64,000 nucleotides of DNA from assembly GCA_963780985.1 (NCBI GenBank), contig CAWAEF010000017.1, positions 120,105 through 184,104 on the forward strand, written 5' to 3'. The position numbers and the translations under genes are program-made. Position 1 is the first letter of the stretch, and each line of letters begins with the position of its first letter. Below are positions 19,222 through 56,324 of the stretch, piece after piece. The notes beneath the pieces are model-generated. The model was not told where the DNA came from and made no database searches. It worked only from the letters and a program-made list of their open reading frames with translations. The stretch is from an uncultured Alphaproteobacteria bacterium (GTDB lineage Bacteria; Pseudomonadota; Alphaproteobacteria; JAGOMX01).

Positions 19222-19276
19222 TACACTGTAGACAAATTTTTAAATCAGAGAACATCAACAAATATAGGTAACAGCC

Positions 19277-19771: not shown

Positions 19772-19844
19772 GTTCTGTACTCGTGTTCATATAAATAATG
19801 GCAGTTCTTAACTACTGCCCAAAAGTTACAGGGCTATCAAAAGC

Positions 19845-19970
19845 CCCCAGCCCGTCCTTGCGAGGAGCGAAGCTCCGCGGCAATCCAGTACGGTAGCCTT
19901 GACTAGTATGCGCTGGGGGAGCGCAACTGGATTGCCACGGAGCTTCGCTCCTCGCAATGACGGGCTGGGG
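19845..19970. repeat. CGTC-type palindromic (REP-like) element with ~45-bp arms
   Basis: ccccagcccgtccttgcgaggagcgaagctccgcggcaatccagt ... actggattgccacggagcttcgctcctcgcaatgacgggctgggg, between convergent genes. Confidence 0.9.
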
Positions 19971-19978
19971 CGTATAAC

Positions 19979-20653: not shown

Positions 20654-20819
20654 TTCTATATTCCTGAACTTCAATAAGGTGCATCAAAAGACTTGGATCT
20701 TGACCTTATCATCAGAATATCCTGTAACCGTTAAATTACGGTAAACAAGGTGTCAGCAATAGCTTAAGACATAAAGAAGCGACGGTTAATTATTCAAGCG
20801 CGCGTCATAAACGAGGCGT

Positions 20820-22136: not shown

Positions 22137-22151
22137 CTTCAGCACTCCTCA

Positions 22152-23207: not shown

Positions 23208-23208
23208 G

Positions 23209-23981: not shown

Positions 23982-23995
23982 ACGACTCACCCTTT

Positions 23996-27045: not shown

Positions 27046-28734
27046 TTAATTGTTCGTCTTAGCATGCGCATCGCCATGAATCAAACCGTCTGTCGTAGAA
27101 TCATCGTTTGCACTGCTCGCTTTTGAGCCGCTCAAATGTCGGCCAACGCACTCGCCATTGACAATAACTAATGAACCTGATGGCTTGGATACCCGGCATG
27201 CTTTTATATCATAAGGCAGCGCGTTCTCAGAGGTTATAATATTTTCTATTCTGGAAAAGTCCCCAGGCATTTTTCCTACCAGGATATCGTAAAGAGGCCT
27301 ATTGCTTCCGCTACCGTCGAGATGAGCCCTAGGCGTATTTAGATTCGCTATAGTGAACATATAATTTATTGCGGAGGGAACGCCTTCTATGTTAATTGCA
27401 AAATCATATTTACCATCTTCATGCTGCAACTCCGTAAAACGAGTGACGTCAAGCTGCTTATTCAGCTCTATTACTCGCGATACATTTACCGCTTTTGACT
27501 TAGGAGTTATTGATAGAACCGATATAATTATAAATAAAGGGGTTGCTACATAACAGAATGCAGGAAGATAACTTTGAACACTACCGCTAGGTTTGCTCGA
27601 TTTTTCCTTGCTCAACATGCTCACAACCAGCATAACAATATTCATTAAAAGCGCTGTATTTAATGCAAAGCCATACTTCTTAATGGCGTATTCTGACCCA
27701 TGCCCAAAGTATAATGCTAGGCATTGTAATATGCAGAGACCAGATACCACAAGACCATAAAGACTGGTATATTTAAAGAGTGTATATCTGGTTCTTTCAT
27801 CCTCGGAGCTAAGATTGAACCACTTAAATAGTAATGCCGCAGATGTGCAAATGACAAATATGCATAAGAATACAAAGCTGCTCAAAGTTGGGGTATACAG
27901 AAAACTCACTGAACCATTGTTGCGGCTTATCTCACTCATGGCTGCCAGAGAGGGGTGGAAAACGATTGATGCTGAAGCAACAAGCATAATAAGGCAGGCC
28001 ACAAAGAACTTCTTTTTACGGTCTTCTGCAGTTGCCTGAATTAAATCTATAGCCATCAGAAAGAACAATAAGCCAAAAAGCTCGAGAGCGGGCATTAAAT
28101 GCGTCCATTGCAAGATAGGTAGAAATAGTAAAAGAACGAGGTATCTAAAAATCGGATTCTCTTCACTTTGTTCATTGCGAATCATGAAGGCTAGCAAACC
28201 AAACAACATGGCTTGTCCAACTAATTGGGCATAGAAAAAGCTTGATACCACCTCGTATCCGTGTATCTCAACATGCATATATCGCCGATTTAAGACCAAG
28301 GCGGCGGATAACAATAAGAAGCACGAGAATGCTCTTCTGACGGGCAAGGAATTTACCATGCTCGCAATACTCGCCCACAAGAGTATGATTGAGGCCAAGG
28401 TTACAACTTGCAGACCTAAGAAACTCGAGCCAAGAACTTTGCCAGTTATTGCTGCCAAAATATGTGATAAGGGAGGATATAGATTCATCTCATCCAAGGT
28501 GGGATCATTTACAGGAAGGGACAAAAGGTCACTGATTCGGTAAACTAACGCATAATGATGAGCCAGATCAACACCACCGGACCATATGTATTTAATTTTA
28601 TAAATAATTAGGCCTACAATTACGCTTATGACTATGAACAGCGAAAACAGCCTCAGGTGAATCGGGTTTTCTTTTAACAATTCTGTCGCCGTCAGCCCGA
28701 GGGAGATTCGCTGAGAATTACCGGATTCGTTCAT
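27046..28734 (-). CDS. Polytopic membrane protein, putative GT-C glycosyltransferase
   Basis: Roughly 11-13 hydrophobic segments, first loop with DLAHH...YPPLSH, soluble C-terminal tail; inside the glycosylation cluster. Confidence 0.6.
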   Translation of the reverse strand: MNESGNSQRISLGLTATELLKENPIHLRLFSLFIVISVIVGLIIYKIKYIWSGGVDLAHHYALVYRISDLLSLPVNDPTLDEMNLYPPLSHILAAITGKVLGSSFLGLQVVTLASIILLWASIASMVNSLPVRRAFSCFLLLSAALVLNRRYMHVEIHGYEVVSSFFYAQLVGQAMLFGLLAFMIRNEQSEENPIFRYLVLLLFLPILQWTHLMPALELFGLLFFLMAIDLIQATAEDRKKKFFVACLIMLVASASIVFHPSLAAMSEISRNNGSVSFLYTPTLSSFVFLCIFVICTSAALLFKWFNLSSEDERTRYTLFKYTSLYGLVVSGLCILQCLALYFGHGSEYAIKKYGFALNTALLMNIVMLVVSMLSKEKSSKPSGSVQSYLPAFCYVATPLFIIISVLSITPKSKAVNVSRVIELNKQLDVTRFTELQHEDGKYDFAINIEGVPSAINYMFTIANLNTPRAHLDGSGSNRPLYDILVGKMPGDFSRIENIITSENALPYDIKACRVSKPSGSLVIVNGECVGRHLSGSKASSANDDSTTDGLIHGDAHAKTNN

Positions 28735-28805
28735 TTAGTGTTTGCCCTATTTACAGATACATAAAGACCGCTTCACAACGGCGCTTCTACATAAGTTATA
28801 ACTGA

Positions 28806-30799
28806 CTATAAGAGTTTTATCGTTTTAATGGAAACTCCAAGATCACGGGGGTCATTACTCAAGCCTAAATCCTTTGGAGAGATCGCATCCGGTAACTCAA
28901 ACTTTATACGAATCAGATTTGAGGAATCCTCCGGCACCAATAGTTCTATATCTTGATCTGGTTTTTCCGCAACATAAAAATATTCCACCGGCTGAGAATT
29001 GTTGATGGAGACTATCATTCTTTGTTTATGCCCCTTTGCAACAAAGCCAGTTGTTGAGAATAATACCCTCTTAGGACGGCTATTAGCGACCGCTGTAATT
29101 TCAAATTGTATTGATGACTTATTGCTTATAGTCCATCGCCCAATATTTTCTGGACCTCCAAATCCTTGTATATCGCAACCGATTAAATCATAATCCTCAT
29201 CTGCGGATAAATTTATCGAATCGCCTGTAGCATAGGATTTTTGAATATTTTTGATCTCGGCATCAGTCAGTCTATAATAAAAGGGCTGCCCTGGCATGCC
29301 ATCAGGGATTTTAGATGTTATTAATTGGGTCAATAGTATCGGATCATAGCTACAGATTCTGTTACCCTGGATAAACGTGCCTTGCCCCCTCAAAATCAAT
29401 ATCTTTCTACAATCCGGACCTATGACCGCAAAATTATCATTCTCGGCAATTCTTCTTAAATCTGAATATCTACCCACGAAGATATCAGCTGGCGGATCAT
29501 ATGCCCAGGGCATTTTGCTCTGTATAAAGTAAGACAACTTAGTTGGTGTATGAAAATTTTCAGGCAAACTTGGGTTATAGTTTTGGTAGGAATAGTATGA
29601 ACATAAAATAACGCCAATCGCTATAATACCGCGGTTGTATTTTGTGGCCAGCACCCAATTTAACGACATCAACATATACGGGAAAAAGAGTGGTATATAC
29701 CACGTGGCGTATCTGGCTATACTAATCGTGCCTCCACTATTCAGACCATATGTGGAAGATTGCGCGAACAAACTGATGACAAGATATGCGAGAAGAAAAT
29801 AATACCAAGATTTATCTTTAGCGTACTCACTAACGGACTTAGAAAACAATAAAGGTACCAAAATCAAGAGCCCTAAACACCAATTTCCGATTAATCCAAT
29901 ATCAGGTTCAAAAAACCACACCCAGAAATACTTTAAATTATAACCCACACCAGCGCCGCCAGCCAAAAGTTGGGGGGTGATAACACCGTAACGGGAGTAA
30001 TAATACAAGGGGTGAAGACAAACAATGACACAGGTCAATGACAGTAGAATCAGTTGTGACCTGCTCAACTTTTCTGATCGGTCAGCAAATAATGAATATA
30101 GAACAATTAAGCCGGATATGGCTGCAAATGATATATTTTGAGTTGAGGCTAGGGCTAAGAAGAATGCCGCTAGAATATATTCCTTTTTAAGGATAACAAT
30201 GACAGCACTGAGTGCCAGACAGTATGTAAAAAACTCGGTATGTACCTTGTCTGTAAACCACAACATAGGTGAGAATACCGTTAAAAGGATCACTGCACTG
30301 AGGCCTTGCCAGCCAAAGCGGCGAAATGAGAGAATCAGAGGAACAGAAAATAGCAAGGCATGGGTGTATATGAAGGACTTATGTGCAGGCAGGTTGATAC
30401 CAAATACCATTACCAACTTGCTTAACAAAGCAGCTAGAAGACTATAGAAAGAAAAATGATTAAAATCCGCCGTGTCACCAAGGCGTAGCTCTGGAAATTG
30501 ATTCTGGTAGTGCTCAAGGGCCGGTATATCCTGTATCTTATCTGATGCAATCAGCTGTCCAAAATCTGACCAACTTTGGGCCGTCATGAAAGGCAGAAAC
30601 GTGTTCTCCAAGCAAAAAACATAGCGTAATATTCACCGCCATCCCCAACCCTTAGGGCATGATTGTTCAGCAAGATAGAAAAGATGCCAAGAGTTATAAG
30701 ACAAACCGCTAAATAAGGCGTCTTATGTGTAATTCCGAAAATAGTTGGCTTCACTTTTACGTTCTTAGCGGCTTCGTGATTTATGCTCGAGTGCGACAC
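28806..30799 (-). CDS. Polytopic membrane protein, putative GT-C glycosyltransferase with a C-terminal periplasmic domain; frameshift near 30600
   Basis: First TM followed by GDGGEYY, HFSFYS, HTEFF; C-terminal GRWT...DPRDLGV motif. Confidence 0.6.
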
Positions 30800-30897
30800 A
30801 CATACATTTCCTATTTCAATTCAACACCAGTCAGAAAGTGTGGACACTGAAACAGTTTTTCCGTTTTTTTGCAAGATAAAACACAACCCCCTCAGGA

Positions 30898-31939
30898 CTA
30901 CTTTTCGCCCGGCCGAGATAATTCCGCTAAGCGTTCAAGCCCGTCCATATCTACCCCTAGAGCTGCTATAGCTCTATTGGCTACTAGCCTATTATTCGCA
31001 GCTATTCCTTGCGCGAACATGTTGACAGCTCTATGCATAACCTGTTTGTGCACAATTGGATTCATTTGCTCTAGATGCCTTACCGTAGTACAGACCACAT
31101 CTATCGTTCCGGAATTGGCGGGGCCAAACCCTCTTCGAAAAATTGGCATGACTCTCCGGTGGCCACTTTCATAACCAGTACGCGAGGATATTCAGCCATA
31201 ACGGGATAGAGGCCCGCGCGCTTTTCTATTTCACTGGAGATCTGAGCATTGGAGCTCCCTCGCAGTCTTTCTGCGTCCTCTGTCGTCAGCCCAAAGCGCT
31301 CATAAGAATAATACTTAACCCCTGAAGAGGATCGCTCCTTACAGTATAAAAACAGGGGTGTTACATCTACAGAATCCACTGCAAAACCAAAATGACGTAG
31401 CCGGTTGTATACATCTCTCAACAGAATACTGCAATAACCTGACACCAAATTCACTTTGGCTTTAGAACGCATATCTTTCGGGAAATGGTTGAGAAATTCC
31501 AATAACAAATTGCGATCCACACTCTCGAACCCCACATGCATGACACCGGCTTTAACGCCAGGCAAATAAATACCTAAGCCCACATTTTCGTACAAATGGG
31601 GGCCACAAGATAGGGCATTTGGGAAAAGTTCTTGGCTTCTGTGATTACGTATGTGTTACCTACAGCGGGATAGAACTTCTGATCCACACCTGACGCTGGA
31701 AACTGAAACATGCACATGGGATCTATGATCAGGTTCTTTGTTTTTGGCAGTTTAAGTAGCTGCTGCAAACCCTCAGGCATTTTCCTTTGGCAATCGCTCT
31801 CACTCATGAATACCAAAGTTTGTTTGATCGTAGAGGATTCGTCCAACACATCTGTCAACTGGAAACTAGGGTCAGACGCTTGCACCCCGGCACACAGAAC
31901 TGCACTTAGCAAAATTAATGCTTGAAACATATTATTCAT
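30898..31939 (-). CDS. Hypothetical secreted protein split across three ORFs
   Basis: Signal peptide MNNMFQALILLSAVLCAGVQAS; overlapping ORFs 31574-31939, 31101-31595 and 30898-31149. Confidence 0.5.
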
Positions 31940-32196
31940 AAATCACCTCATATCATGGACATACTGCTGTCTATAACATTTGAGACTTTTCGTCAATTTT
32001 CATGTGGTGAACTAATACAGTTTTTTCCCCGCCTGCATATATATTACCTAAGGATGGATATAGCTATTTGAATGCATGCTTTTTTTTCGTGAATAAGAGT
32101 TTGAAAATGTGCTAAAGTTGACGAGTTGAAATAGGACTTGGTCACATGTTATGGGTCCAAGCATTGCACGATAATTTATGGGAAAGTGGATTTATC

Positions 32197-33807
32197 ATGA
32201 ATAAGGTTACGATTCTAAATGTTTCTATAGTTTTAGGCTTAACTCTAGCGTCGACGGGTACGCAGGCATCTAATGAAGATCAGGTGAAAGAGAAACCTGC
32301 GAAAAATGCCCCTGCACAACACGTGGACCTTTTGAAAGAGGCGCTTGCATCATCTTATACGACGAATAGCGCGTTAAGGGCCAAGTTACACGAGCTGTAT
32401 GCTATTGACGAGGATGTTAACTTAGCCTTTTCAGAGTTTCGGCCATCACTCAGCGTGATGGCGATATAGGACAAAATTCAGCTCACCATAAAGCGACGCG
32501 GAAGGTTACAGATGTATCTATACCCAATCGAGATGGCGATCCTGATTACGTAAGTGGTCGGATAAATAAGCAAACCAAAAGCAAAAATAACCTAACAAAA
32601 GGCACAGCTACGCTGCAGTACAGCAATCACTCTATAAAGGTGGCAGTACCCTTGCTAATCTGCGGGCTCAGGAGAACGCCGCGTTTGCCGGACAGTATGG
32701 CCTTCTTTTTGTTGAGCAGGACACACTACAGAAGGCGATTACCGCTTACATGGATGTTATTTTTCAAACGAGCTCTGTAAAATCCAGGGAGACAAACGTT
32801 AAATTTCTGACCGAGCAACTCGACGTAGTAAAATCTCAGGTTAAATTTGGTGAGAAGGCGGAAACAGATACGGCAGTAGCTGAATCAGCGTTGGCAAAAG
32901 CTGAAGCCGAGCTGTTGACCAACATGAATGAATTGGACGACGCCAAGGCCAATTATCTCAATATAATTGGTGAAAAGCCGGGGCTTCTGGAATACCCCCC
33001 TCTCTGCCAAAATTACCTAAAACTCTAAATGAAGTTATTGATGTCGCATTGAAATCCAATCCTAAAATATTGGAAGCTATTTATAAAGCCAAGAAGGAAG
33101 ACCTTCTGATTGACGCCAGATCTGGAGCTCTGCTGCCCAGTTTGGATCTTACGGCTAGTGCGTCGAGGAATCTGAATCAGGATCAGAGTGAACAGCAGTC
33201 TAACGAGCAGAACTATAATCGCGCATTTGCAAACCAGTTTAATAGCGGAAAAAGGTGTTAACAAAGGCCGGAATAATGATGCTGCCGTTGACCTTAAACT
33301 TACCGTTCCCTTGTATGGGCGCGGTGGTGCTGATTATGCACTAACCCGCAGGCAGGCAGAAAGCGCGGCTGCGGCACGTTACGAACTAGAGCAAGCTCGG
33401 AAAAACGCCCTAGAAAACGCCACCAAGGCTTGGGACACATTGAAGACAGCCCGGGCAAATGTAATAGGTTACAAAAAACAATTAGACGCAGCCGAAAAAG
33501 CTCGTAAGGTGCCCTGGTCGAAGTTAAAGCTGGTGCACGTCTGATTTTCTGGATCTAGTGGAATTGCAAGTACAACTTATTAACGCGGGAATTAGCTTAC
33601 AAAGAGCAAGACGTGATGAAGCAGTTGCGCAATATACGCTTTTTAGCTGTTATGGGTAAACTAACTGCCCGCGACCTTGGATTGCCAGTGACTATTTACG
33701 ATGTTGACGGGCATCTTGACAAGGTGCGCTATAAAATGATTGGTTTCGGGGATGCTCCTAAAATATTGGAAGATAAAGAGGATTCAGGCTCAATCATAAA
33801 AAATTGA
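32197..33807 (+). CDS. tolC: TolC-family outer-membrane channel, fragmented by several frameshifts
   Basis: LKEALASSYTTN, AFSEFRPSLS, AYMDV, TDTAVAESALAKAEA, NPKILEA, GALLPSLDL, LTVPLYGRG, LAVMGKLTARDLGLPVTIYD. Confidence 0.85.
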
Positions 33808-33825
33808 TCCCGCTATTTTATTTTT

Positions 33826-34006
33826 GGCTCTTATGCAAAACGGGTGGGTTGGATGTAATCTTCTGCCCCTGGCAGACGTCATCCTGAACGGACGACCGCG
33901 TAGCGGGCGGAGGAAGGATGACGGGGGACGGGAGTATTTGCTTTTCTAACTATCCTCACTTGAGTTCAACTAGCATACCGATTACCCACCTATTTACATA
34001 AGAGCC
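33826..34006. mobile_element. Putative MITE (181 bp) containing a nested CGTC repeat
   Basis: Imperfect TIRs ggctcttatgcaaaacgggtgggt / acccacctatttacataagagcc; flanks ttattttt and gtattttt (7/8 match, possible target duplication); internal cgtcatcctgaac...ggatgacg at 33877-33923. Confidence 0.6.
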
Positions 34007-34307
34007 GTATTTTTTGCAGATCTCAATCTGAATTACTTTCTTCATTTGATATGGAGTAGTGGTTCAACGCCAGTATAGTCCGGATAGTATCCGTCAATCA
34101 GATTCATATAATCATGCTTGAGTATCTCAACGATCTTCATTGTCGGGATGGTTCCCTATGCCCATGGCGATCAAATCAAGAGAATAATCATTGATGCGGT
34201 AATCTAATACACCGTATATGAATATGACAAATAGCTTAGTGAAAAGAAGATCGCTAAAGATAAGCCAAGCATAATAATACTTGTTTTCTTGCAATACCTG
34301 ACATTTG

Positions 34308-34323
34308 TTAACTATTTGTTAAC
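34308..34323. promoter_or_regulatory. CtrA-binding box
   Basis: Perfect TTAA-N7-TTAAC (TTAACTATTTGTTAAC), ~95 bp upstream of the giant-protein ATG. Confidence 0.65.
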
Positions 34324-34418
34324 TATTACTAGATACAATGAAAGTATAGCTATTAAGTCTTTGCTTGCCTTTCTTTAATGCATTAAGCTTGGTTTTATAA
34401 GCAGTGGGGGTGCTAAAT

Positions 34419-37400
34419 ATGTCAATTATCACAATCACAAAGAATAGTCAAGTCACGGGCGGCCTAGTTAAGGGTACGGCTTCGTCTGATCTTATCACAG
34501 TCTTTTCTGCCGTTAGCGTTAATCTCACCATCGATGGCCTTGGCGGCGGGGATGCTATTTACGCCGGTGGTAGCGGTGTGGACTCGGTTGTCTATTATGC
34601 CAGCGATCTGCTTTATGTAGGTGATATTGGTGGTAGTGGTACGGACATTCTGGATATTAAAGGCTCGGGTCAGACGGTTAATTTATCGGGTAGTACCAAA
34701 CATTCTGGACCTGTGGTCACGGGTTTTGATGAATTGGATTTGACTAACGGCGGCACGGATGTGTCGACGGCGGCGTCTCATAATACTCTTATTATCGATG
34801 GCCAGGGCGTTGATAATTTCACGGAAAAAACCAACAGCATTACGCATACGGCGGATACCATGATTGTTAATTTGGGCGAGTATGATGTGGTCCAAATGGG
34901 TTCAGGCTGGGTGGAGGGCGCTTCTAAAGTCATCGGCGCCATTCATTATGATGTATATACGGATGTAATCAGCGAGGGAAAATCTACTGAAACCGTGACT
35001 CTTTACGTGGAGTTCCGTAATCCTATTGCTCAAACTGACACGCTCTCGACGACTATAGATAATCCATCATACTCAGTAAACCTGCTCACACAAGATCCAA
35101 CTTTGTTATTTGATCCTAATGGAGATCCATTGCACTTCTCTATGGTGAATGGCGCGGCCATTGCCGCTTCGGGCGCCACTGCCTTTACGACGGCGCTTGG
35201 TTTCCATGGTACTATTACTGCCGCAGGCCTAGTGACGCTCAATACCACTGGGCCTAATCTTAATGCTTATGACGCTGTGGTTGGGTCGACTTTACATGAT
35301 TCGTTCACGTACCAGGTAGCTGACGGGTTTGGTGGTGTTTCTAATACGGCCACCATCACCGTAAACGAGACAGTCATCGACGAGCCATTTGCGGTTACTA
35401 CTGCAAGCGGAGTCGTCCTGACTAGCACTGCCCCATCGGCCGTGGTTGCCAGTTCCACGGCACCTAACGATGCGCCTGCTGGCTCGCTTCCTATTTTAGA
35501 TGTTGTTCTAGCTCCTGCCGATGGCGCCTTGAGCATAAATGCACAGGGCCAGGTGGTTTATACAGCCAACTATAGCAATCCAGCCATAAGTGCCTTGAAT
35601 GTGGGACAAACTGCACATGATACCTTCACTTTTGAACTGCTCACGCCTGGTGAAAAGCTAGGGGGGACCGCAGAGGCTACTCATACTGAGACGGTGACTA
35701 TCAATGGCGCGGCCACGGGCGTGCCTATGGCATCTACATCGGCGCTAGCTCCCTTCGGAACGGTTACAGTCGGAAATCCTAAGACAGAGACAGAAACCAT
35801 TACCAATACGGGCACTGGAACTTTGAATGTCTCCAGCGTAGCGGTTCCTGCTGGCTTTAGTGATACCTTTACAGCCATAAGCCTTACCCATGGGCAAAGC
35901 GAGACGTTTAATGTGACTTTTGCACCAACCGCAAATGGATTAGATTCAGGAAATTTGGTCTTTACTGATAATTCCGGGAACGGCGTAAATGTAACTCAAT
36001 CGGTTGCATTGAGTGGCACCGGGTATGCGCCAGTGGCAACAGCCGCTACGGAGAATATCAACTTAGACAGTGCGGCTCAGACGTTTAACATCGCATCGTT
36101 GGTGGCGGATCCCAATAGTGATCCTCTTACATTTACTACGGCAACCGGCGCTTCATTTGTTACCGCCCAAGGCTTTAGTGGCACGATTTCGGCCGCAGGG
36201 GCGGTCAGTATTAACACCCTGGGGCCTAATGCGGCTGAATACAATGCGGCACCTGGTTCTACTATATCCGATTCGTTTGCTTATAAGGTGACAGATCCTT
36301 ATGGCAACGTCAGTACAAACACAATTACAATCAATGAGAAGGTGATTGACGAGCCATTTGCGGTTACGCCTGCAACTGGGATCGTGCTGACGAGCGGCGC
36401 CCCATCGGCCGTGGCTGCTACTTTCGTTGCGCCCAACGATGCGCCTGCTGGATCGCTTCCTATTTTGGATATTGTGAGCGGTCCTGCCTTTGGCAGCCTG
36501 AGCGAAAATGCGATGGGTCAGCCGGTTTATACGGCCAACTATAGCAATGCAACTATAGCTGCCTTGAATGCAGGCCAGACTGTAACAGATTCTTTCACTT
36601 TTGAATTGCTCACCCCTGGTGAAGTTGCAGGCGCAACGGCAGAGACTTCTTATCATGAGACGGTAACTATAGATGGCACCGGCGCGCCTGTGGCATCTGC
36701 ATCGGCTATCACTCCATTTGGAACGGTAACAGTCGGAAATTCAATGACAGAGACGGAAACCATTACCAATACGGGCAGCGGAATCCTGAATGTGACCAGC
36801 GTAGCGGTTCCTGCTGGCTATAGCGATAGCTTTACCGCTGCAAGCCTTGCCCATGGACAAAGCGAGACGTTTAATGTAACTTTTGCACCAACCGCAGCTG
36901 GGCTGGATTCGGGGAATTTGGTGTTTACGGACAATGCTGGCAACGTCGTAGGCGCAACTCAACTGGAAGCTTTAAGTGGAACGGGCTTTATTCCTGTGGC
37001 AACAGCGGCTACGGAAAATATCAACTTAGACAGTGCAGCTCAAACATTTAACATCGCATCTTTGGTGGCGGATCCCAATAGTGATCCTCTCACATTTACA
37101 ACGCCAAGCGGCGCTTCATTTGTTACCGCTCAAGGCTTTAGCGGCACTATTTCGGCTGCAGGGGCGGTCAGTATTGATACCCTGGGGGCAAACGCGGCTG
37201 AATACAGTGCGGCACCTGGTTCTACTATATCCGATTCGTTTGCTTATAAGGTGACAGATCCTTATGGCAACGTCAGTACAAACACAATTACAATCAATGA
37301 GAAGGTGATTGACGAGCCATTTGCGGTTACGCCTGCAAGTGGGGTCGTGCTGACGAGCGGCGCTCCTTCGGCCGTGGCTGCTACTTTCGTTGCGCCCAAC

Positions 37401-49663: not shown

Positions 49664-50413
49664 TTGAGACAACCATTGGATAAGATAAAAATATATTTGA
49701 TAGGAATATCCCTTATGTTACAAGCCTGTTCAGAACAATCCATAACCCTCATTAATGATCCATCAGTTTCGGCGTTGCCCATTAATGAGAGCCATGAGCC
49801 ACTCGTTGACCTAAGGGGACAAACTATAATATCACTTGGACCATCTCCAGAAATTCCAAATAATCAAGATTACACAAAAGTACGCAAAAGCGTATATGAA
49901 AAGCTTTTAGAAGCTCAGAAACTATTACCTGTTGGGTTGAGGTTTTGCTTGTATGAAGGCTACAGAAGTCTCACGCTGCAAGACCGGCTTTTTAAAGCAC
50001 GATACGCGGAGGTACAAAGAGCGCATTCAGCTTGGTCCCATGAAGAAATATTTATGGAAACCACCAAGCTGGTCTCTCCGTTGACTAATTTAGATGGTAC
50101 GCAAAATGTTCCACCACACTCAACGGGCGCTGCCGTGGATGTCTATCTCATAGATGAAAATGGGAATCCTGTGGATATGGGCATGCTCATTAAAGATTGG
50201 ATTCAAGATGTTGACGGGTCGCTTTCACTGATGCATTCAACCAGAATCTCGCAGCAAGCGAAGAACTATAGAAACATCATGAGCGAAGTGTTAAGCCAGG
50301 TTGGCCTCGTCAACTACCCAACTGAATACTGGCATTGGTCCTATGGAGACCGCTACTGGGCTTTTCACAAGGGAGTAGGCCATGCGATGTATGGGAGTGT
50401 GAGAAACAAATGA
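49664..50413 (+). CDS. D-Ala-D-Ala dipeptidase (peptidase M15D, VanX/DdpX family), lipoprotein-like
   Basis: YEGYRS, PPHSTGAAVDV, EYWHWSYGDRYWA; LQAC lipobox-like motif. Confidence 0.9.
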   Translation: MRQPLDKIKIYLIGISLMLQACSEQSITLINDPSVSALPINESHEPLVDLRGQTIISLGPSPEIPNNQDYTKVRKSVYEKLLEAQKLLPVGLRFCLYEGYRSLTLQDRLFKARYAEVQRAHSAWSHEEIFMETTKLVSPLTNLDGTQNVPPHSTGAAVDVYLIDENGNPVDMGMLIKDWIQDVDGSLSLMHSTRISQQAKNYRNIMSEVLSQVGLVNYPTEYWHWSYGDRYWAFHKGVGHAMYGSVRNK

Positions 50414-50832
50414 ACAGCATCGCTTATACCTCCTCCAGCCGCCATGAGCTAACGAACAAAATTACGGAGGGGCTTCAAAAACGACTGGCAGCTCTGACGA
50501 ACATCGATGCAAACAATATAGAACCCCAAGTGATTTATGCCTTTCATAATGATATGTTCCTGGGCGGTGTCATGTATCAGCTGCACAGAGACATCTTGTG
50601 GATAGACTCGCTCTGGGTTGAAGAAAAGCATAGATACAAAGGCGTCGGCGAACAACTGGTGAAAAAAATCATGCTTATAGCTGGGCAACAAGGGACTCAC
50701 CAAATTCAGCTCAACACATTCTTCCCGGAAGCCCATGAGTTCTTCCTGAAATGCGGCTTCGAAGACGTAACCGTGGCGCCCGACTGGAAATACGGGCTGC
50801 AGTGTTATTTGATGAGGAAAGTACTATTATGA
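50410..50832 (+). CDS. GNAT family N-acetyltransferase
   Basis: LWIDSLWVEEKHRYKGVG, AHEFFLKCGF; ATGA overlap with the upstream gene. Confidence 0.88.
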   Translation: MNSIAYTSSSRHELTNKITEGLQKRLAALTNIDANNIEPQVIYAFHNDMFLGGVMYQLHRDILWIDSLWVEEKHRYKGVGEQLVKKIMLIAGQQGTHQIQLNTFFPEAHEFFLKCGFEDVTVAPDWKYGLQCYLMRKVLL

Positions 50833-50943: not shown

Positions 50944-51019
50944 TTAGAACAACGTGAGACAGTTCGCACCTATCAATATGATTAGAACAACGTGAGACAG
51001 TTCGCACCTATCAATATGA
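50944..51019 (+). repeat. Perfect 38-bp tandem duplication
   Basis: ttagaacaacgtgagacagttcgcacctatcaatatga occurs twice. Confidence 0.95.
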
Positions 51020-51125
51020 ATGGAACCAACTTCATATGGCGCTTGTTTCAATCTGTCCTTACATTCCAGTAGAATACTGAAAGTATGGCCCGGCAGATTC
51101 ACCGGACCTGTCAAAGCACAAAAAT

Positions 51126-52013
51126 CTAGAAAGGGTTAAGTGACGCGACCCTTTGCTTCTTCGCGCGTTCTACTTCACTCTTAATTTGAGCTTCAAGTTT
51201 ATAACGGGCATATCGTGAAATCAGACCCATTTTTTCAATTGTTGTTAAAGCGTCTGCTCCATGAGGAGTAGTGGAATGGAGGCCCTTATAATATATCGCA
51301 TCTTTCCCACCAGAAAAACACTCTATAACAGCCCTATCTTTTTCATCAGCTTTTACGTATTGGCTATTAAGCTCATCTATATATAAATCAATCAAAATAG
51401 TCGGATCCACCTTAAACCAAATCTCTACTTCATTAATAGCGTCCTCTTTCAAGCGGCCAATAACAATTATGCTCTGCAAGGCATGGTAACTACCAAAGAA
51501 ACCGCCAAGCGTATCAACAGCGAAGGGCCTAAAATTCGGATTACCAGGCAAAGGCTCATCTTTCATTGAAGCTATACCGCTCACCAACCAAAACCTGCCT
51601 GTATCCCATTGATGCCATTGATTAATAAAAGTCCTGTTAGTCTCTCTTAGGAACCTATTTTTGGGTATTTCGCAAGAAAAATAATAATCTATTCCAACTG
51701 CCGCGGAGATACTGGCTAAAGTCACATAGGCAAATCTTTTTAAAACCGATCCATTATAACTCCTTAAAGGCACGGAAGAGTGCAATGTTCGCACGGGCAT
51801 ACGCATACAAGACCGTGCCATATTTCTGCTGGACAAGGAACTCAAAGCCCCTACGCGTCTTATGACATTTTCACCAAAATATTCGGACGCATCGGCGTCA
51901 GGCATTAATGCAGCACTAGTTACAACCACAAGTCCTGCCAGCATCATATTTCTGACTTTTCTGTTAGTTAGATTACATGTACCCATTAAGGTTTTCATTT
52001 TATTTTTGTACAT
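51126..52013 (-). CDS. Hypothetical secreted protein with a presequence-like segment and one TM
   Basis: Hydrophobic signal ending PDADAS, Arg/Ser-rich stretch, TM FAYVTLASISAAVGI. Confidence 0.65.
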   Translation of the reverse strand: MYKNKMKTLMGTCNLTNRKVRNMMLAGLVVVTSAALMPDADASEYFGENVIRRVGALSSLSSRNMARSCMRMPVRTLHSSVPLRSYNGSVLKRFAYVTLASISAAVGIDYYFSCEIPKNRFLRETNRTFINQWHQWDTGRFWLVSGIASMKDEPLPGNPNFRPFAVDTLGGFFGSYHALQSIIVIGRLKEDAINEVEIWFKVDPTILIDLYIDELNSQYVKADEKDRAVIECFSGGKDAIYYKGLHSTTPHGADALTTIEKMGLISRYARYKLEAQIKSEVERAKKQRVASLNPF

Positions 52014-52048
52014 AAGGGACTCCCAAGCTGTTTGGGTTAAAGATGAGC

Positions 52049-52093
52049 TAGCTTAACCAAGGGTATTCTGCCTGTCATCCGTAAAAAATACGG
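52049..52093 (-). promoter_or_regulatory. Sigma70-type promoter with the palindrome CCGTA-AAAAA-TACGG
   Basis: ATGACA-N17-TAAGCT immediately preceded by CCGTATTTTTTACGG. Confidence 0.5.
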
Positions 52094-52354
52094 AAAACTA
52101 TTATTTAATGACCTCAGATACATCGGACTTCATCTCATCTCCTTGCTTAAGAGACGATTGCGGACCACATTGCTTGACTAAACTTTTTCCCTACCGTCTT
52201 GATTTAATGACCAAAATGACATGTTTGAGGAACATTCTAAGAAGACCGCATCAAAACTTATCAGAAAGGATTAAATACTTGACTTAACTCATCCACGACC
52301 TTATACAAACTATAATGAACGTTAGGTATGGTTTAAATATAGAGAATATTAAAG

Positions 52355-53245
52355 ATGTTTGGTTACACAAAGAAGATTATAGCTGCAGTTAGCCTGCTGG
52401 CTTTATACCCAGTGCAACATGAGGCTCATTGTTCGGATGTAGACTTCGATGCAGGATTCAAGAACGTGAAAGGTCTTGCTATACACCATAAGTCTTTTGA
52501 GGAATCAAAAGAGCCCAAGATAGTAACGATGGGGGCTAATGGTAGAGATATTAAAACAAGATTACTAATCGAGGCCAGCAAGAAAACCCGTCCCAGCATC
52601 TTACGACTAGTCTGCAAGGACTTCAGAGATATCATAGATACGGGAACTCCAGATAATATAGGATTAAGGTATTCCACCATTGGTTCTGTATGGAAGCAGT
52701 GTATCCACGCGTGGTATGGCGTATTAGGCCATGAAGGCACTTGGCAAACAATCTTGAACGGCGAGTTGGTTTACAAGCCTAATCCAGATAGTGATGATGG
52801 GATAAAACGTTTGAAGATATCTGACCTTCCCAACCCTTTTGCAGGATCTTTTGACCTATCCGATTGTGGTGATGCTGGTAAGTACGTAAGCATCTCCATG
52901 GGTTTGCGAAAAGGAAAAAAAGACAGCAACAAAGACAAGAGCGAAATCTGGTTGATACCAAGGTTTTTAGCCATGCAGAAACTTGAAGGTAACGCGTCTT
53001 ATCTTAAAGAAACCATGGGCCAGTGGAGTGGCGAAACCCTTGTGGCGGTTATCTTTAACTGGTGGAGCAACCCAAATGACGCGTATGCTTATTGCTATTG
53101 GGCAGATTATGCGACGTTGCGGAAAACTAATCTGGGTGTGATTTATATGGACGAAAAAACGTCCCCGTGCGTCGGCGCGTGGGGCGGTGCGTGTGGACCT
53201 TCGGTGGCCAATGCAATTTCATGTTTCGTTTTTAAACTCGCCTAA
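52355..53245 (+). CDS. Secreted hypothetical protein with an F-box-like motif and a compositionally anomalous 3' end; candidate RT target
   Basis: Signal peptide (…EAHCS), SILRLVCKDFRDII; ends 3 bp from the RT stop. Confidence 0.75.
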   Translation: MFGYTKKIIAAVSLLALYPVQHEAHCSDVDFDAGFKNVKGLAIHHKSFEESKEPKIVTMGANGRDIKTRLLIEASKKTRPSILRLVCKDFRDIIDTGTPDNIGLRYSTIGSVWKQCIHAWYGVLGHEGTWQTILNGELVYKPNPDSDDGIKRLKISDLPNPFAGSFDLSDCGDAGKYVSISMGLRKGKKDSNKDKSEIWLIPRFLAMQKLEGNASYLKETMGQWSGETLVAVIFNWWSNPNDAYAYCYWADYATLRKTNLGVIYMDEKTSPCVGAWGGACGPSVANAISCFVFKLA

Positions 53246-53248
53246 GAA

Positions 53249-54421
53249 CTATTGACAATGACCCATGGCTTCTGCCATGGCGCCGGACCTCAAACATGAA
53301 AAGAGGCTAGGCAGAAGGGTTTGAACATATTTCTCAAACTCCTTTATTGTCGACATTCCTAAGGCAAGCCAGGACGCCCATTTTCGAACATATTGCCGCA
53401 AAGTCACAAGTGTACCAGGCTTTTGAGCAGCTGAAACCAACAATTGGGTCAAGATGCTCTGAACATCTACCTCTGTTGGAGCTGGCTCATTAACCATGTA
53501 CTCCGAAATGTCGCGCCCATGAGGATTGCTCTTGTGTTGGCGGGATACATTTCTTTTACCTTGCGACGGCTCATAAAGCGCGGCACCACGTTCGTGAAAA
53601 CGCCTGAGTGTTTCTTTAGAGGGTAAAATCTTTTGATCGTCCATATAATAACCAAGGAAATTAAAGCCATGGGCAATCTTACCAATATAGGTTTTAGAAG
53701 GATGTAGTTGCAGCTGTAAACCAGCCACAACCTTATGGGTGATCTTTACGACTTTTCGCAAAGCTGTTTTGCTTTTAGTGAGAATCACCCAATCATCCAT
53801 GTAGCGTGCATAAAAAACGCCTTTGATCTGCCCAATAGCCTTATCCAACGGAACTAAGGCGATAGCCCCAAGAATTGGAGAAAGAGGTGATCCCTTAGGT
53901 ATCCCTTTGTCATCGTAATCATAGAAGTTTCCTCCACGAGTCTCTGTGCGCTGCAATGCCTTACGCAATAGGGTTAATAAAACAAGATGATGAAGATGGG
54001 GCTCGATAATACCCATAAGGACATCAAATCGAATGGACTGGTAGTAGCTCTTAATATCGCTCCGCATTACATAATGATGTTCAGATAAGGCATCATGAGT
54101 ATGATTCACTGCCTTATTAAGGCCTCCACGATCTTTGATATGGTAACAAGATTGGGGTATATGATCATCCATTCTAGCGGCCAAAGCTTGAGCTATAAGC
54201 TTCAAGGCAATCATATCCTGAGACGACCAAAGGGAGATAGTTGCGTCATCAAACTCATAGCGCTCCAGCATGTCAAAGGTGTAGGACCCATCATTAAGCT
54301 GCTTTAGCAGACCATCTTTGATGCTATTCCACCGTATCCGAAGACGCCAAATGTCGGAGTTAGCAGAGTATTCTTTAAGCAGGCCGCAAACCCATTTAAA
54401 TGCTTGCTCAAGGGTATCCAT
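53249..54421 (-). CDS. Reverse transcriptase (RNA-directed DNA polymerase), unclassified group-II-like; start may lie up to 54484
   Basis: RSDIKSYYQSI, GIPKGSPLSPILG, YARYMDDWVIL, LHPSKTYIG, GFNFLGY; no HNH/endonuclease domain. Confidence 0.93.
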   Translation of the reverse strand: MDTLEQAFKWVCGLLKEYSANSDIWRLRIRWNSIKDGLLKQLNDGSYTFDMLERYEFDDATISLWSSQDMIALKLIAQALAARMDDHIPQSCYHIKDRGGLNKAVNHTHDALSEHHYVMRSDIKSYYQSIRFDVLMGIIEPHLHHLVLLTLLRKALQRTETRGGNFYDYDDKGIPKGSPLSPILGAIALVPLDKAIGQIKGVFYARYMDDWVILTKSKTALRKVVKITHKVVAGLQLQLHPSKTYIGKIAHGFNFLGYYMDDQKILPSKETLRRFHERGAALYEPSQGKRNVSRQHKSNPHGRDISEYMVNEPAPTEVDVQSILTQLLVSAAQKPGTLVTLRQYVRKWASWLALGMSTIKEFEKYVQTLLPSLFSCLRSGAMAEAMGHCQ

Positions 54422-54453
54422 TGAAAATAATAGGGGGGTCAATATCGTGGTTT

Positions 54454-54808
54454 TATACCCATTCAAGGGCTGTTTTCCCTGCATTACGTTTGATGCCTAA
54501 CAGGTGAATTTGTTCTTATCGTATCATGAATTGTTGTGATGGGCATTGGTATTTTTCAACAGTGCCTAAAACAGGTGGTTCTAGAACAACCAAAATCGGT
54601 GACATCAAGACCACAGTGGGGTTTGAGGATTGGCCTGTAACAAACGTCCCAGAACTAGTCCCAATTGAGTTTGTTCCTAAACGCATCGTCTTTTGGGTTT
54701 TTGGGATGCTACTTAGACAAAAAGACAGCAGGCTTAACATTTTTCCTACGAAACAGACGGTTGTTTAAATCTTTTTTACAGAAAACAGCCGACTGTTTCA
54801 AGGGTATA
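54454..54808 (-). ncRNA. Putative structured RT-associated non-coding RNA
   Basis: Long-range pairing TATACCC/GGGTATA and GGCTGTTTTC/GAAAACAGCC brackets the region; internal hairpins and a direct repeat; no convincing ORF. Confidence 0.5.
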
Positions 54809-54848
54809 GGGCTGCGATAGCTGTGCGTTCGAAACGAAGATTCAGGCC

Positions 54849-56324
54849 CTAGCCCTTATCCAACATTTCCTTCAGCACATCATTCAGCAGCTTCGGATTC
54901 GCTTTGCCTTGCATGGCTTTCATGGCTTGGCCTACGAAGAATCCGAATAGTTTATCTTTGCCGCTGCGGTATTCTGCTACCTTATCGGCGTTATCCTTGA
55001 GGATCTGTTCGATGCAGGCGCGGATGGATGAATCGTCGCTGACTTGTTCGAGGCCTTTTTCTTTGACGATGTCGGCGGCTACTTTGCCGGACTCCCACAT
55101 TTCCAGGAACACATCCTTGGCTATACGTCCAGAAATAGTGCCATCGACGATCAGGTCCACCATTTCGGCCATGTGTTCAGGGGTCACTTTGGACTCTGTG
55201 ATGGTCAGGCTGTCTCGGTTCATGGCGCCAAACAGCTCGCTGGTAATCCAGTTGGCTAGCAGCTTTGGACTCTTATCATCCTTTTGTTTGGTCGCCGCAA
55301 GGGCAGACTCGTAATAGTCCGCAAAGTCACCATCAGATACAAGAACGGCCGCATCGTAAGGGCTTAGGCCCAGAGTCTCGATAAACCGACGCTTTTTAGC
55401 ATCGGGAAGCTCCGGCAGGCTCTGGCGAACGCGCTCCACGAGTTCCTCGGTCAATACCAGTGGTGGCAGATCGGGATCGGGGAAATAGCGATAGTCATGA
55501 GCCTCTTCTTTCGACCGCATACTGCGGGTTTCGCCGCGTACAGGATCAAACAAACGTGTCTCCTGGTCGACGGTTCCACCGTCCTCTAGGATCTCCATCT
55601 GGCGTTGAACTTCGTAGTCAACGGCCTGACCCATAAAGCGGATTGAGTTCACATTCTTGATCTCCGCACGGGTACCCAATTCAGCCCCAGGACGGCGCAA
55701 GGATACGTTCACATCGGCGCGCATACTCCCCTGCTCCATGTTGCCGTCGCAAGTGCCTAAGTAACGCACCAGCGAACGCAAGCTTTTGACAAATGCCATG
55801 GCCTCTTCTCGGCTGGACATGTCAGGCATGGTGACGATCTCCATCAACGCCACACCTGAACGGTTCAGGTCGATAAAGGTCTTGTTGGGATGCTGGTCAT
55901 GTATACTCTTACCGGCGTCCTGTTCCAGGTGGATACGCTCAATGCGGATGGTCTTACTGGTGCCATCAGCCAAGTCAATGTCCAAATGCCCCTCGCCAAC
56001 GATGGGGTGCTTATACTGGGAAATCTGGTATCCCGCGGGCAGATCCGGATAGAAATAGTTCTTCCGATCAAAAACCGAATGCTTGTTAATCTTGGCATGT
56101 AGCCCCAAACCTGTCTTGATGGCTTGACTCACGCAGTAGTCATTTATCACCGGCAACGTGCCTGGAAAACCCGCATCTACCAAGGATACTTGGCTATTGG
56201 GGTCTGCACCGAATTCAGTGGATGCGCCGGAAAATAACTTGGAATTAGAAGTAACCTGAGCATGGACTTCAAGACCGATAACTACTTCCCAAGGGCCTGT
56301 GCGGCCTTCTACATATGACGTCAT
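54849..56324 (-). CDS. gatB: Asp-tRNA(Asn)/Glu-tRNA(Gln) amidotransferase subunit B
   Basis: [47 protein letters not shown]. Confidence 0.98.

Follow-up and report, generated by a model that had tools for sequence, protein, structure and literature searches.

A UG4-class reverse transcriptase with a structured RNA at its 3' end and a hypervariable junction to F-box-like genes in an uncultured alphaproteobacterium

The UG4-class reverse transcriptase (RT) module described here is coupled, both physically and in its evolution, to the 3' ends of a family of F-box-like genes. From comparative folding, the final ~130 nt of the RT transcript are shown to be a conserved RNA with five predicted helices that runs across the RT stop codon. 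Between this RNA and the convergent gene lies a patch whose turnover, as judged from alignments, outpaces that of four-fold degenerate sites several-fold and involves indels. That the RT itself rewrites the 3' ends of its target genes is plausible from these comparisons, but falls short of being probable. The locus was found in a window of 64,000 nt, by which we mean the whole stretch of DNA analysed. Its host appears to be a protist-endosymbiont-like alphaproteobacterium, and the target family appears to be restricted to one genus, with F-box-like proteins of ~300 aa.

The reverse transcriptase and the gene it faces

The following features make up the locus outside of the junction:

53249 to 54484, minus strand: UG4-class RT with YMDD at residue 228 (ORF of 411 aa; profile matches)
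54433 to 54438, minus strand: C6 tract at RT codons 16-18 (length differs among relatives)
54485 to 54848, minus strand: gap 5' of the RT, its proximal ~96 nt (54485-54580) being a candidate promoter or 5' UTR (alignment, fold test)
52355 to 53245, plus strand: target gene of 296 aa with a signal-like N-terminus, a weak F-box-like segment, LRLVCKDFRDII, and a C-terminal domain (ORF)
52233 to 52343, plus strand: conserved 5' flank of the target, candidate promoter or 5' UTR (paralog alignment)

As a first-pass annotation made from the DNA letters had claimed, the RT ORF is intact (Pfam RVT_1, E 1.2e-20), it carries the GIPKGSPLSP motif at residue 194 in addition to YMDD, and exactly 3 nt lie between its stop codon and that of the convergent gene. 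Its best profile is PADLOC RT_UG4 (E 4.4e-87, 290 bits, profile positions 3-301 of 307), followed by the generic RT profile with 127 bits, UG17 with 124 and UG18 with 123, and by this near end-to-end match the RT is assigned to the UG4 class (UG/Abi class 2). A Pfam scan of the RT gave RVT_1 as the sole domain and no endonuclease, maturase or other added domain. At E<=1e-20 we found 157 homologs, the top one being 96% identical and likewise 411 aa long. Two sister genomes each hold a full-length RT match with one in-frame stop near codon 13; in L011 and L013 this stop sits just 5' of the C tract, which at RT codons 16-18 reads C6 in the window, C11 in L011, C7 in L034 and C5AC2 in L013.

According to excerpts of the UG4 reports (Simon & Zimmerly 2008; Toro & Nisa-Martinez 2014; Sharifi & Ye 2021; Mestre et al. 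2022), RTs of this group measure 278-347 aa in the 2008 set (PMC2602772), adjoin fimbrial genes in 66% of the instances in complete genomes (PMC8934634), have a fimbrial neighbourhood (PMC9226505) and are not enriched in defence islands. The RT of the window resembles them in its nearly full-length profile match, its single domain, its proteobacterial origin and its position beside a gene for an exported-type protein. It differs from them in its length, as some 55 residues inserted internally towards the C-terminus (roughly 305-362) take it beyond the 2008 range, in its F-box-like rather than fimbrial partner and in the tail-to-tail arrangement with abutting stop codons. A fimbrial neighbourhood is absent at the window locus and fimbrial operons are present at plasmid UG4 loci; the window shows no defence context either.

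The annotation had also placed ~350 nt of structured non-coding DNA, and with it the RNA partner, upstream of the RT, and our results do not support this. The gap from the RT start to the gatB stop measures 364 nt and folds with an MFE of -82.5 kcal/mol compared to -78.4 +/- 4.95 for shuffles (z -0.83), 22 of 100 shuffles folding equally well, and an Rfam scan of 51000-56000 at E<=1 gave zero matches. Only the RT-proximal ~96 nt align, in three of the four relatives compared, while the distal part does not align with relatives and the whole gap in L012 is 128 nt long.

It is hardly credible that the RT belongs to a group II intron or a retron. Its similarity to both is weak and sub-threshold, with 113 bits to TIGR04416 (cutoff 300) and 47.6 bits to the retron St85 profile (cutoff 235), as against 290 bits to UG4. 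We rejected the group II intron, in agreement with the annotation, on this score together with the lack of a ribozyme match (51000-56000) and of a maturase domain, and the retron on its score, the lack of an Rfam retron RNA in the same interval and an upstream fold no better than shuffles.

The oppositely oriented gene, described before as encoding a secreted protein, is indeed present as an ORF whose N-terminus is hydrophobic and, judged by eye, signal-like. The window target itself has no Pfam, NCBIfam or PADLOC match, fimbrial Pfam families included. Among 10 aligned family members, F-box matches at E<=1 were obtained for PF00646 in five and for PF12937 in four, with a best value of 1.7e-5, and one target homolog carries a precomputed PF12937 match. 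The AF2 model of the target reaches a mean pLDDT of 65, with residues 110-296 mostly at 70-93, and a Foldseek search of it against the PDB gave nothing at E<=0.001. Homologs of the target fall into 8 clusters in a set of 5.8 billion proteins. Its 5' flank is 79% identical over 113 nt to the flank of a paralog (G000:C31:160889-161000), whereas the first halves of the two coding regions were not alignable by blastn.

A conserved RNA across the RT stop codon and its copies

53238 to 53367, minus strand: structured RNA at the 3' end of the RT transcript, spanning the RT stop codon at 53249-53251 (RNAalifold, covariation)

In the predicted fold, 53362-53367 pairs with 53238-53243 as the closing helix and 53347-53351 with 53254-53258 as the inner one; these two enclose three hairpins at 53320-53338, 53287-53307 and 53263-53280. 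RNAalifold gave 31 pairs, 19 of which show changes on both sides; 90.5% of the cells are paired, compared to 25-50% when the partner is slid, and the covariation score was matched by none of 500 shuffles. As G-U wobble cells number 50 on the RT strand and 6 on the other, the RNA lies on the RT strand. Thus a conserved structured RNA does exist, at the 3' end of the RT instead of upstream of it.

The model built from this RNA (R1) scores 190 bits at the window site and has 19 matches in the three genomes of the genus, with 6 in G000, 4 in G002 and 9 in G003, and no copy was found by the same search in the family's three other genera. RT, RNA and target gene family share one distribution, being present in 3/3 genomes of the genus and in 0/3 of the other genera. 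The linkage of RT and target was found conserved at all eight RT-bearing loci of the clade (window, L011, L012, L013, L014, L015, L029 and L034), where the stop of the convergent ORF falls 22-42 nt into the RNA element and that of the RT at 36. The paralogs suspected elsewhere in the genome do exist and bear the same RT-derived 3' element: the RNA copies mostly accompany 5'-truncated RT remnants and face paralogous F-box-like genes tail-to-tail, and 17 of the 23 copies examined have either a convergent ORF of 120 aa or more or one that is open at its 5' end. RT-less copies retain 24-31 of the 31 pairs.

Structured RNAs are also known beside other RTs of this class. Excerpts of Mestre 2022 describe essential, group-specific structured ncRNAs next to the RT genes of DRT2/UG2, DRT9/UG28 and UG27, located on the upstream side of the RT or between it and a partner gene, in systems that are antiviral or viral. 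The window locus shares with these an RT that is small, has a single domain and belongs to the same class, together with a structured RNA. In contrast to them, its RNA overlaps the last 40 codons of the RT, is multi-copy and is tied to secreted-type genes.

The truncated remnants bring to mind a site-specific, LINE-like bacterial retroelement. Its RT mRNA would be known by the 3' RNA and A-rich tail and copied from the 3' end, with priming on a DNA 3'-OH at the ends of family genes; RT-less copies would then be 5'-truncated retrocopies, the G-rich patch described below untemplated junction sequence and any effect on the protein tail a by-product. LINE/R2-type non-LTR elements leave 5'-truncated copies with a structured, A-rich 3' end and extra nucleotides at the 3' junction, and the copies seen here are alike in all of these points. 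The remnants beside paralogs begin between RT residues 308 and 370 and extend towards the C-terminus as far as about 384-411, the sole exception being one 5' RT fragment at a contig end, and at the paralog G000:C3:61628-62476 only the patch and the tail word remain. The position of the patch coincides exactly with the 3' junction, its G-richness is on the strand that would be extended by such priming, and many RT homologs are found on short contigs, as is usual for repeats. In an excerpt of Simon and Zimmerly 2008, retromobility is hinted at, among RT groups outside introns, for UG4 alone (PMC2602772). We nevertheless consider such an element unlikely. Pfam shows no endonuclease domain, only the ends of one gene superfamily are occupied, so that every insertion would have needed the same codon region, and the host is bacterial. 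Near-identical recent copies are missing too: among the RT-less copies the closest has 93% identity to the element of the resident RT and 89% in its adjoining gene half, an equal divergence that fits co-duplication rather than fresh insertion. Finally, about five remnants break near the same point, at RT residues 321-333, which suggests one truncated ancestor.

An ancestral unit of gene and RT may instead have been duplicated along with the family, most RTs being lost from the 5' side and the 3' RNA being kept. Although we see this history as somewhat doubtful, several observations agree with it. The RT-less copies C15, C31b and C6 of G000 are only 58-73% identical to the element of the resident RT and resemble lineages from other genomes, from which it follows that the element has not been overwritten from the resident RT. 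Several full-RT lineages are present in the genus, and an intact RT can adjoin a different paralog in a related organism, since L029 combines a C31a-type gene with a 95%-identical RT and L028 a C17-type gene with a remnant; this fits differential loss or recombination. On the other side, since the structure is that of the RT strand, a separate promoter would still be required at each RT-less copy. What this history implies for the junction is weighed in the next section.

The patch between gene and RNA

53162 to 53212, plus strand: hypervariable, G-rich and A-poor patch encoding ...SPCVGAWGGACGPSVAN (composition, alignments)
53217 to 53237, plus strand: conserved T-rich word TTTCATGTTTCGTTTTTAAAC (A-rich tail of the RT-sense RNA)

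The anomalous composition that the annotation had seen at the 3' end of the target is that of the patch, with a GC of 0.73 (G22 C15 T11 A3 of 51) vs 0.45 and 0.44 in its flanks. Among copies the patch between gene body and RNA is 37-69 nt long, G-rich and A-poor, and the composition over 19 copies is A 0.13, C 0.22, G 0.45 and T 0.20, compared to an A of 0.27-0.29 in the flank. Its GC stays at 0.65-0.86 in a genome with 47% GC. As a control, family members without the element show no G-rich, A-poor 3' end, their richest 45-nt window reaching a G of 0.24-0.44 vs 0.42-0.64 in members with it. L012 has an intact RT in the same 3-nt tail-to-tail arrangement, yet its patch is ordinary (GC 0.49, A 10 of 43).

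Far from being invariant among paralogs, the patch is replaced where its surroundings are kept. In six pairwise comparisons of four close copies the flanks are 85-95% identical with 0-2 gaps, and the patches only 33-43% identical with 0-15 gap columns; the window patch has 38-43% identity to those of C31a, L028 and L029, whose flanks reach 87-95%. Four-fold sites in the gene bodies of two orthologous pairs differ by only 9.4% (8/85) and 12% (10/83). A third gene pair shows 86% identity in the left flank, 51% in the patch and 95% in the element. In a variant contig compared with the window, all nine of the indels listed fall within 53168-53209. Window-identical pieces that include part of the patch were seen in runs X1 and X4, which indicates that over very short periods the patch stays unaltered in these.

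Behind the patch follows the T-rich word, which is unique in the window (0 chance matches expected) and conserved across copies. It is read in three frames, with stops in all frames thereafter, and yields the peptides SCFVFKL (window), FMFRF* (C31a, L028 and L029) and FHVSFLN (L014). Owing to the patch indels, the ORF enters the word in any frame and stops.

A target with a variable 3' end next to an RT recalls the diversity-generating retroelements (DGR), in which the VR is followed by the IMH and a hairpin. The locus is similar to these in that the target is adjacent, convergent and of the secreted type, in the conserved sequence and structure after the variable end and in the presence of further targets elsewhere in the genome. 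All the same, a canonical or near-canonical DGR with adenine-specific mutagenic homing from a template repeat (TR) is highly improbable. As the annotation had said, there is no clean TR: only short, chance-like repeat families were found in 51000-55500, with nothing TR-like and no long repeats in 51000-55000. In the 2.0-Mb assembly (74% complete) and the fetched loci the window patch matches only itself, as do all 19 patches save for one 16-nt match of chance level for one of them. Likewise in line with the annotation, the five neighbouring ORFs scanned gave no Avd-like Pfam match. The RT is of another class, its best profile being UG4 with no DGR model among the NCBIfam matches listed, and it has GSPLSP rather than the ...SQ motif. 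The patches differ through indels, frame changes and wholesale replacement and not through substitutions at A positions, the differences in the flanks of the variant contig are mostly transitions and not adenine-specific, and the variable part spans only ~50 nt outside of the folded domain. On these grounds we rejected both a DGR and a near-DGR.

If the family arose by duplication of a gene and RT unit, the patch would be constrained in composition and free in sequence, and would evolve fast through slippage and relaxed constraint. Possible constraints are a C-rich site for Rho loading on the RT strand, a protein tail rich in Arg, Gly and Ala, or both; the retained RNA might act as terminator or insulator, antisense regulator or RNA-stability element for the neighbour or the convergent pair, and the RT would have another job, for instance in defence or regulation as in other class 2 UG/Abi systems. 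A Rho-loading site is expected to be C-rich and G-poor, and in RT sense the patch has a C of 0.45 and a G of 0.22. G runs and (GGC)n occur in some patches, and in L012 the RT is present and the G-rich patch absent, both of which agree with this history. However, patches are nearly unrelated (33-43%) where four-fold sites differ by only 9-12%, and relaxed constraint alone is insufficient as it cannot exceed the neutral rate. The window patch contains no tandem repeat or SSR, and an unconstrained stretch in a 47% GC genome should not remain at its high GC. On the RT strand the patches fold no better than shuffles (z -1.6 to +2.2), which speaks against intrinsic terminator hairpins, and no terminator-like site was found in 52000-55000.

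A possible RT-driven renewal of protein tails

Rewriting of the junction by the RT, which we prefer, could proceed as follows. The RT would bind the structured RNA both within its own mRNA (in cis) and at copies that lack an RT (in trans), and DNA synthesis would begin at the junction of gene and RNA. The patch would be replaced either by untemplated, G-biased addition or by very error-prone copying and subsequent recombination with the resident copy, and as an outcome the C-terminal tail of putatively secreted proteins would be renewed without a template repeat. A comparable arrangement occurs on a Salmonella plasmid, where a distant UG4 RT overlaps 99 nt of the 3' end of a convergent inverse-autotransporter gene and a second, 5'-truncated RT copy likewise overlaps a second such gene. 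Most plasmid UG4 loci count against it, as their RT is co-directional, lies behind fimbrial genes and is not convergent.

Further observations count against rewriting by the RT. The enzyme has no extra domain, sister RTs carry in-frame stops and the L012 patch is ordinary. To these are added the window-identical patch pieces of runs X1 and X4, the divergent RT-less elements of G000 and the C-rich, G-poor composition of the patch in RT sense, which is that of a Rho-loading site. The G runs and (GGC)n may also evolve fast via slippage alone.

By analogy only, the junction can be compared to V(D)J joining, in which terminal transferase adds N nucleotides: both show short, GC-rich, template-free and length-variable inserts which, at a defined junction, alter frame and protein. 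Enzyme family and organisms are unrelated, and no recombinase or signal sequences are known here. A wider proposal, which we regard as speculative and rather unlikely, is that UG4 RTs are junctional diversifiers that use no template repeat, are guided by the RNA of their own 3' end, of which RT-less copies stand behind other genes, and add untemplated, G-biased DNA where gene and RNA meet. If this were true, they would be a bacterial counterpart of N-region addition in which length, sequence and frame of the C-terminal tails of secreted or surface proteins are continually redrawn, and the same logic would account for the association of UG4 with fimbrial and adhesin genes that has long been remarked upon.

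As a named RT group UG4 dates from 2008, and it has no known function; our literature search found no paper on what these RTs do, and excerpts of the UG4 literature hold no mention of an RNA at the RT 3' end, of RT-less RNA copies or of a hypervariable junction patch. The locus gives the first concrete handles that we found, namely a covarying RNA in the 3' end of the RT, extra copies of it behind genes of host-interaction type and a faster-than-neutral patch without a TR. If the RT does not make the patch, the RNA would still be a new and well-supported structured element in an uncultured endosymbiont lineage. If it does, this would be a new route to variation of exported proteins, unlike DGRs, phase-variable repeats and cassette conversion, and might also yield a polymerase whose junctional addition can be programmed.

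The UG4-class reverse transcriptase and its surroundings

The reverse transcriptase (RT) and an oppositely oriented ORF lie tail to tail with 3 bases between their stop codons, exactly the spacing claimed in the first-pass annotation. The locus is composed of the following features:

52355-53245, plus strand: target gene, a 296-aa ORF convergent with the RT
53162-53212: patch, a G-rich, A-poor stretch between the gene body and the element
53217-53237: T-rich tail word TTTCATGTTTCGTTTTTAAAC, following the patch
53238-53367, minus strand: structured RNA (the element), comprising the last 40 RT codons, the RT stop codon and the final codons of the convergent gene
53249-54484, minus strand: RT ORF, intact, 411 aa
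Past the RT in the window direction, with 364 nt from gatB to the RT: gatB and gatA

The intact YMDD enzyme proposed earlier was borne out, with RVT_1 as the sole Pfam domain (E 1.2e-20), YMDD at residue 228 and GIPKGSPLSP at residue 194. PADLOC assigns it to UG4 with E 4.4e-87 and 290 bits over profile positions 3-301 of 307, the runner-up profile reaching 127 bits. A group II intron RT and a retron RT were both rejected, as the intron equivalog (cutoff 300 bits) gave 113 bits and the retron model (cutoff 235 bits) 47.6 bits. No Rfam match was obtained for 51000-56000 at E≤1, and neither the repeats of 51000-55500 nor the patch searches revealed a template repeat or donor cassettes, in agreement with the earlier statement that a clean template repeat is absent. 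Tested on its defining features, each of the readings as a DGR, an intron or a retron fails. The RT locus has its closest named relatives in alphaproteobacterial MAGs, of which one is labelled Candidatus Finniella, and judged solely by these labels the host is probably a protist-endosymbiont-like alphaproteobacterium. RTs of this subclade are common in environmental metagenomes, with 157 clusters at E≤1e-20 that are mostly 380-420 aa long. Their contigs mostly measure just 1-5 kb, which would be expected of repeated loci that interrupt assembly.

A poly-C tract at RT codons 16-18 (54433-54438, minus strand) varies in length among relatives, with C6 in the window, C11 in locus L011 (about 1792-1802), C7 in L034 (about 1503-1509) and C5AC2 in L013. 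One in-frame stop interrupts each of the full-length RT matches in the two sister genomes; in L011 and L013 it is located shortly before the tract. L011 also has an ATG immediately ahead of the tract, which the loss of one C would bring into the RT frame. RT expression may be phase-variable, or the interrupted RTs may be pseudogenes. Divergent from the target gene is a 295-aa ORF (51126-52013, minus strand) with a hydrophobic N-terminal segment and no match in Pfam, NCBIfam or PADLOC. A peptidase M15/VanY-like ORF is located at 49664-50832 on the plus strand (E 2e-13), and the next ORF, which overlaps it, matches GNAT acetyltransferases (E 7e-10).

The first-pass annotation had placed a structured RNA upstream of the RT, and this assignment fell. 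The 364-nt stretch from gatB to the RT (54485-54848) contains no credible ORFs and folds no better than shuffles (MFE -82.5 kcal/mol, shuffle mean -78.4, z -0.83, 22 of 100 shuffles as good), has no Rfam match and is conserved only in the RT-proximal ~96 nt, in three of four aligned relatives. In locus L012 the whole gap is only 128 nt long. We read the proximal ~96 nt as a candidate promoter and 5' UTR.

A structured RNA at the 3' end of the RT transcript and its copies

Using nhmmer and 53100-53500 as query we found 19 distinct junctions from the window's own assembly (G000), two sister genomes of the genus (G002 and G003) and other assemblies, and 17 copies were aligned on the RT strand. 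In the element two helices enclose three hairpins, and compensatory changes are evident. RNAalifold places 31 pairs in it, for which 90.5% of the cells are paired compared to 25-50% with the partners slid by 1-3 columns; both sides have changed in 19 pairs, and none of 500 shuffles reached the covariation score. Read on the RT strand, 50 of the non-Watson-Crick cells are G-U, against 6 on the target strand, and the structure therefore belongs to the RT-sense transcript.

The covariance model of this RNA, R1, identifies 6 copies in G000, 4 in G002 and 9 in G003, some of them outside the training set, and none in the family's three other genera. The partner genes show the same distribution as the RT and the RNA, present in 3/3 genomes of the genus and in 0/3 other genera, a small sample of related genomes; all genomes compared are MAGs, the window's assembly being 74% complete. 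When R1 was applied to more distant UG4 loci (L016-L027, L030, L033, L036, L038, L040, L045) only the window matched, so the RNA as modelled is either confined to the clade or too diverged there for detection.

Searching the window's assembly with the RT protein returned the full gene and short C-terminal fragments at four further places, and the target protein returned three paralogs, two of which (on contigs C31 and C15) directly adjoin RT fragments in convergent orientation; the weak paralog match G000:C8:61093-61413 is left out of the counts that follow. The fragments start at residues 308-370 and run to about 384-411, several of them with stop codons. Pairing is kept at 24-31 of the 31 pairs in RT-less copies and at 27-31 in RT-linked ones, and the paralog G000:C3:61628-62476 keeps only the patch and the tail word. 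The RT segment YVRKWASW (residue 365) falls within the UG4 profile match, whose last residue is 373, and resembles YVRAWRRW of a distant Salmonella plasmid UG4 RT; this part is therefore ancestral RT sequence and not a captured flank. A LINE-like retroelement would explain both the common 3' end of the copies and the position of the patch at the junction, but it has no endonuclease and no recent copies, and we consider it unlikely.

The window gene and its paralog C31a in the same assembly are 87% identical over 52724-53488, covering the 3' half of the gene and the 3' end of the RT, and no alignment is possible between their 5' halves. A related organism from a metagenome has an intact, 95%-identical RT beside a C31a-type gene (L029), and its window-type gene stands in the genomic surroundings of C31 next to no more than a remnant, a 5'-truncated copy, of the RT (L028). 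Compared to the arrangement in G000 (contigs C17 and C31), the gene bodies and the RT have thus been shuffled among the loci, which could result from recombination in the common 3' region or from differential RT loss.

Partner genes and the patch at the junction

The linkage of RT and target gene, which the first-pass annotation had proposed for checking, is conserved, as all 8 loci with RT sequence beyond a remnant show the convergent arrangement. In 17 of 23 copies of the element the partner ORF, convergent and either at least 120 aa long or open at the contig edge, has its end at 22-42 nt of the element, where the RT stop is at 36. Most partners are ~290-320 aa long with the common start M-F-x-x-T-K-K-hydrophobic and, near the end, an N-L-Y-x-N-W-K/Q-K or I-Y-M-D-E-K-T motif. 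The target protein itself has a hydrophobic, signal-like N-terminus (judged by eye) and no match of its own in Pfam, NCBIfam or PADLOC; among 10 aligned relatives an F-box model matches 5 and an F-box-like model 4 at E≤1 (best 1.7e-5). Its AF2 model is of moderate quality and gave no Foldseek match in the PDB at E≤0.001, and a scan of metagenomes with the target alignment gave 3 loci. Two copies have as partners small Cys-rich proteins of 97 and 131 aa with signal-like N-termini, unrelated to the main family, so the element is not strictly tied to one protein fold. The elements behind these partners are:

G000:C6:28142-28312
G003:C72:1109-1298

Amino-acid divergence is 10% between the window gene (52355-53245) and L028 and 21% between C31a (G000:C31:161023-161829) and L029, and equals or exceeds the divergence at four-fold sites of the gene bodies, which is 9.4% (8/85) and 12% (10/83) in these orthologous pairs. 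The partner proteins thus evolve very fast, and host-interaction proteins often do so.

Between the C-terminal motif and the element lies the patch, 37-69 nt long with a GC content of 0.45-0.86, while both flanks are at about 0.44; the compositionally odd 3' end ascribed to the target gene is therefore real. Summed over 19 copies on the gene strand the composition is A 0.13, C 0.22, G 0.45 and T 0.20, and several RT-linked copies have 0-1 A in the patch. With so few A a stop codon is hardly possible in any frame of it. The tail word is translated as SCFVFKL, FMFRF* or FHVSFLN among the copies and is followed by stops in all frames. Family members without the element lack the G-rich, A-poor 3' end, their richest 45-nt window having a G content of 0.24-0.44 compared to 0.42-0.64 in members with it; the two sets were sorted by R1 matches, as a strict motif regex under-calls the tail word. 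The window patch is no simple tandem repeat. A terminator hairpin was also rejected, since the patches fold no better than shuffles on the RT strand (z -1.6 to +2.2), and a consensus scan of 52000-55000 gave no terminator-like sites.

The paralogs had been expected to vary at their 3' ends, and at the DNA level this holds for the patch and not for what surrounds it. In the six pairs among the window, C31a, L028 and L029 the patch is hypervariable, with 33-43% identity and 0-15 gap columns, whereas the flanks are 85-95% identical with 0-2 gaps. Given the few differences at four-fold sites, the patch was either replaced or mutated several-fold faster than neutral sequence. The pair G002_C60 and G003_C12 shows 86% identity in the left flank, 51% in the patch and 95% in the element. 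Among the contigs assembled from four public sequencing runs (X1-X4) there are pieces that match the window exactly, and one contig is divergent, with all 9 of its listed indels within 53168-53209; the contig cover from X1 has holes at 53200-53271. No second copy of any patch was found in the assembly or the compared loci.

We tentatively propose that the patch is a product of the RT and that the enzyme uses the RNA. Alternatively, decayed duplicates together with a regulatory RNA and slippage would explain the old, lineage-sorted RT-less copies and account for L012, in which an RT occurs without a G-rich patch. This leaves both the turnover above the neutral rate and the sustained G-richness unexplained, and we regard it as the less likely reading.

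UG4 reverse transcriptases in other genomes

In available accounts UG4 appears as a small proteobacterial RT group, frequent on plasmids and described as not enriched in defence islands. The parts dealing with it in PMC8934634 and PMC9226505 place it often beside fimbrial genes, and those in PMC2602772 give a hint of mobility. Our literature search found no paper on UG4 function. On public plasmids we observed UG4 RTs co-directional with fimbrial operons and at their end. A Salmonella plasmid (L066, NZ_CP019190.1 80000-128000) carries two convergent inverse-autotransporter genes (in the regions 18633-25370 and 28529-34771), each ending inside a UG4 RT gene. The intact RT overlaps the 3' end of its convergent adhesin gene by 99 nt, and the second, IS-truncated copy, which lacks residues 1-171 and adjoins an IS110 element, has the same position at the second adhesin gene. 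On the RT side the two loci are 96% identical, while blastn aligns nothing over the final ~690 nt of the adhesin genes. A Legionella longbeachae plasmid (L070, NZ_CP020895.2 3353-12090) has a UG4-like RT in convergent orientation to an annotated SidC gene, with a gap of 354 nt between them and annotated IS elements on either side. Among L016-L027 no convincing convergent abutting ORF was seen, L015, L018 and L023 being left out as no RT ORF was found in them. The tail-to-tail geometry is not general among UG4 loci, and it may be the adjacency of the RT to the 3' end of a gene for an exported protein that is general.
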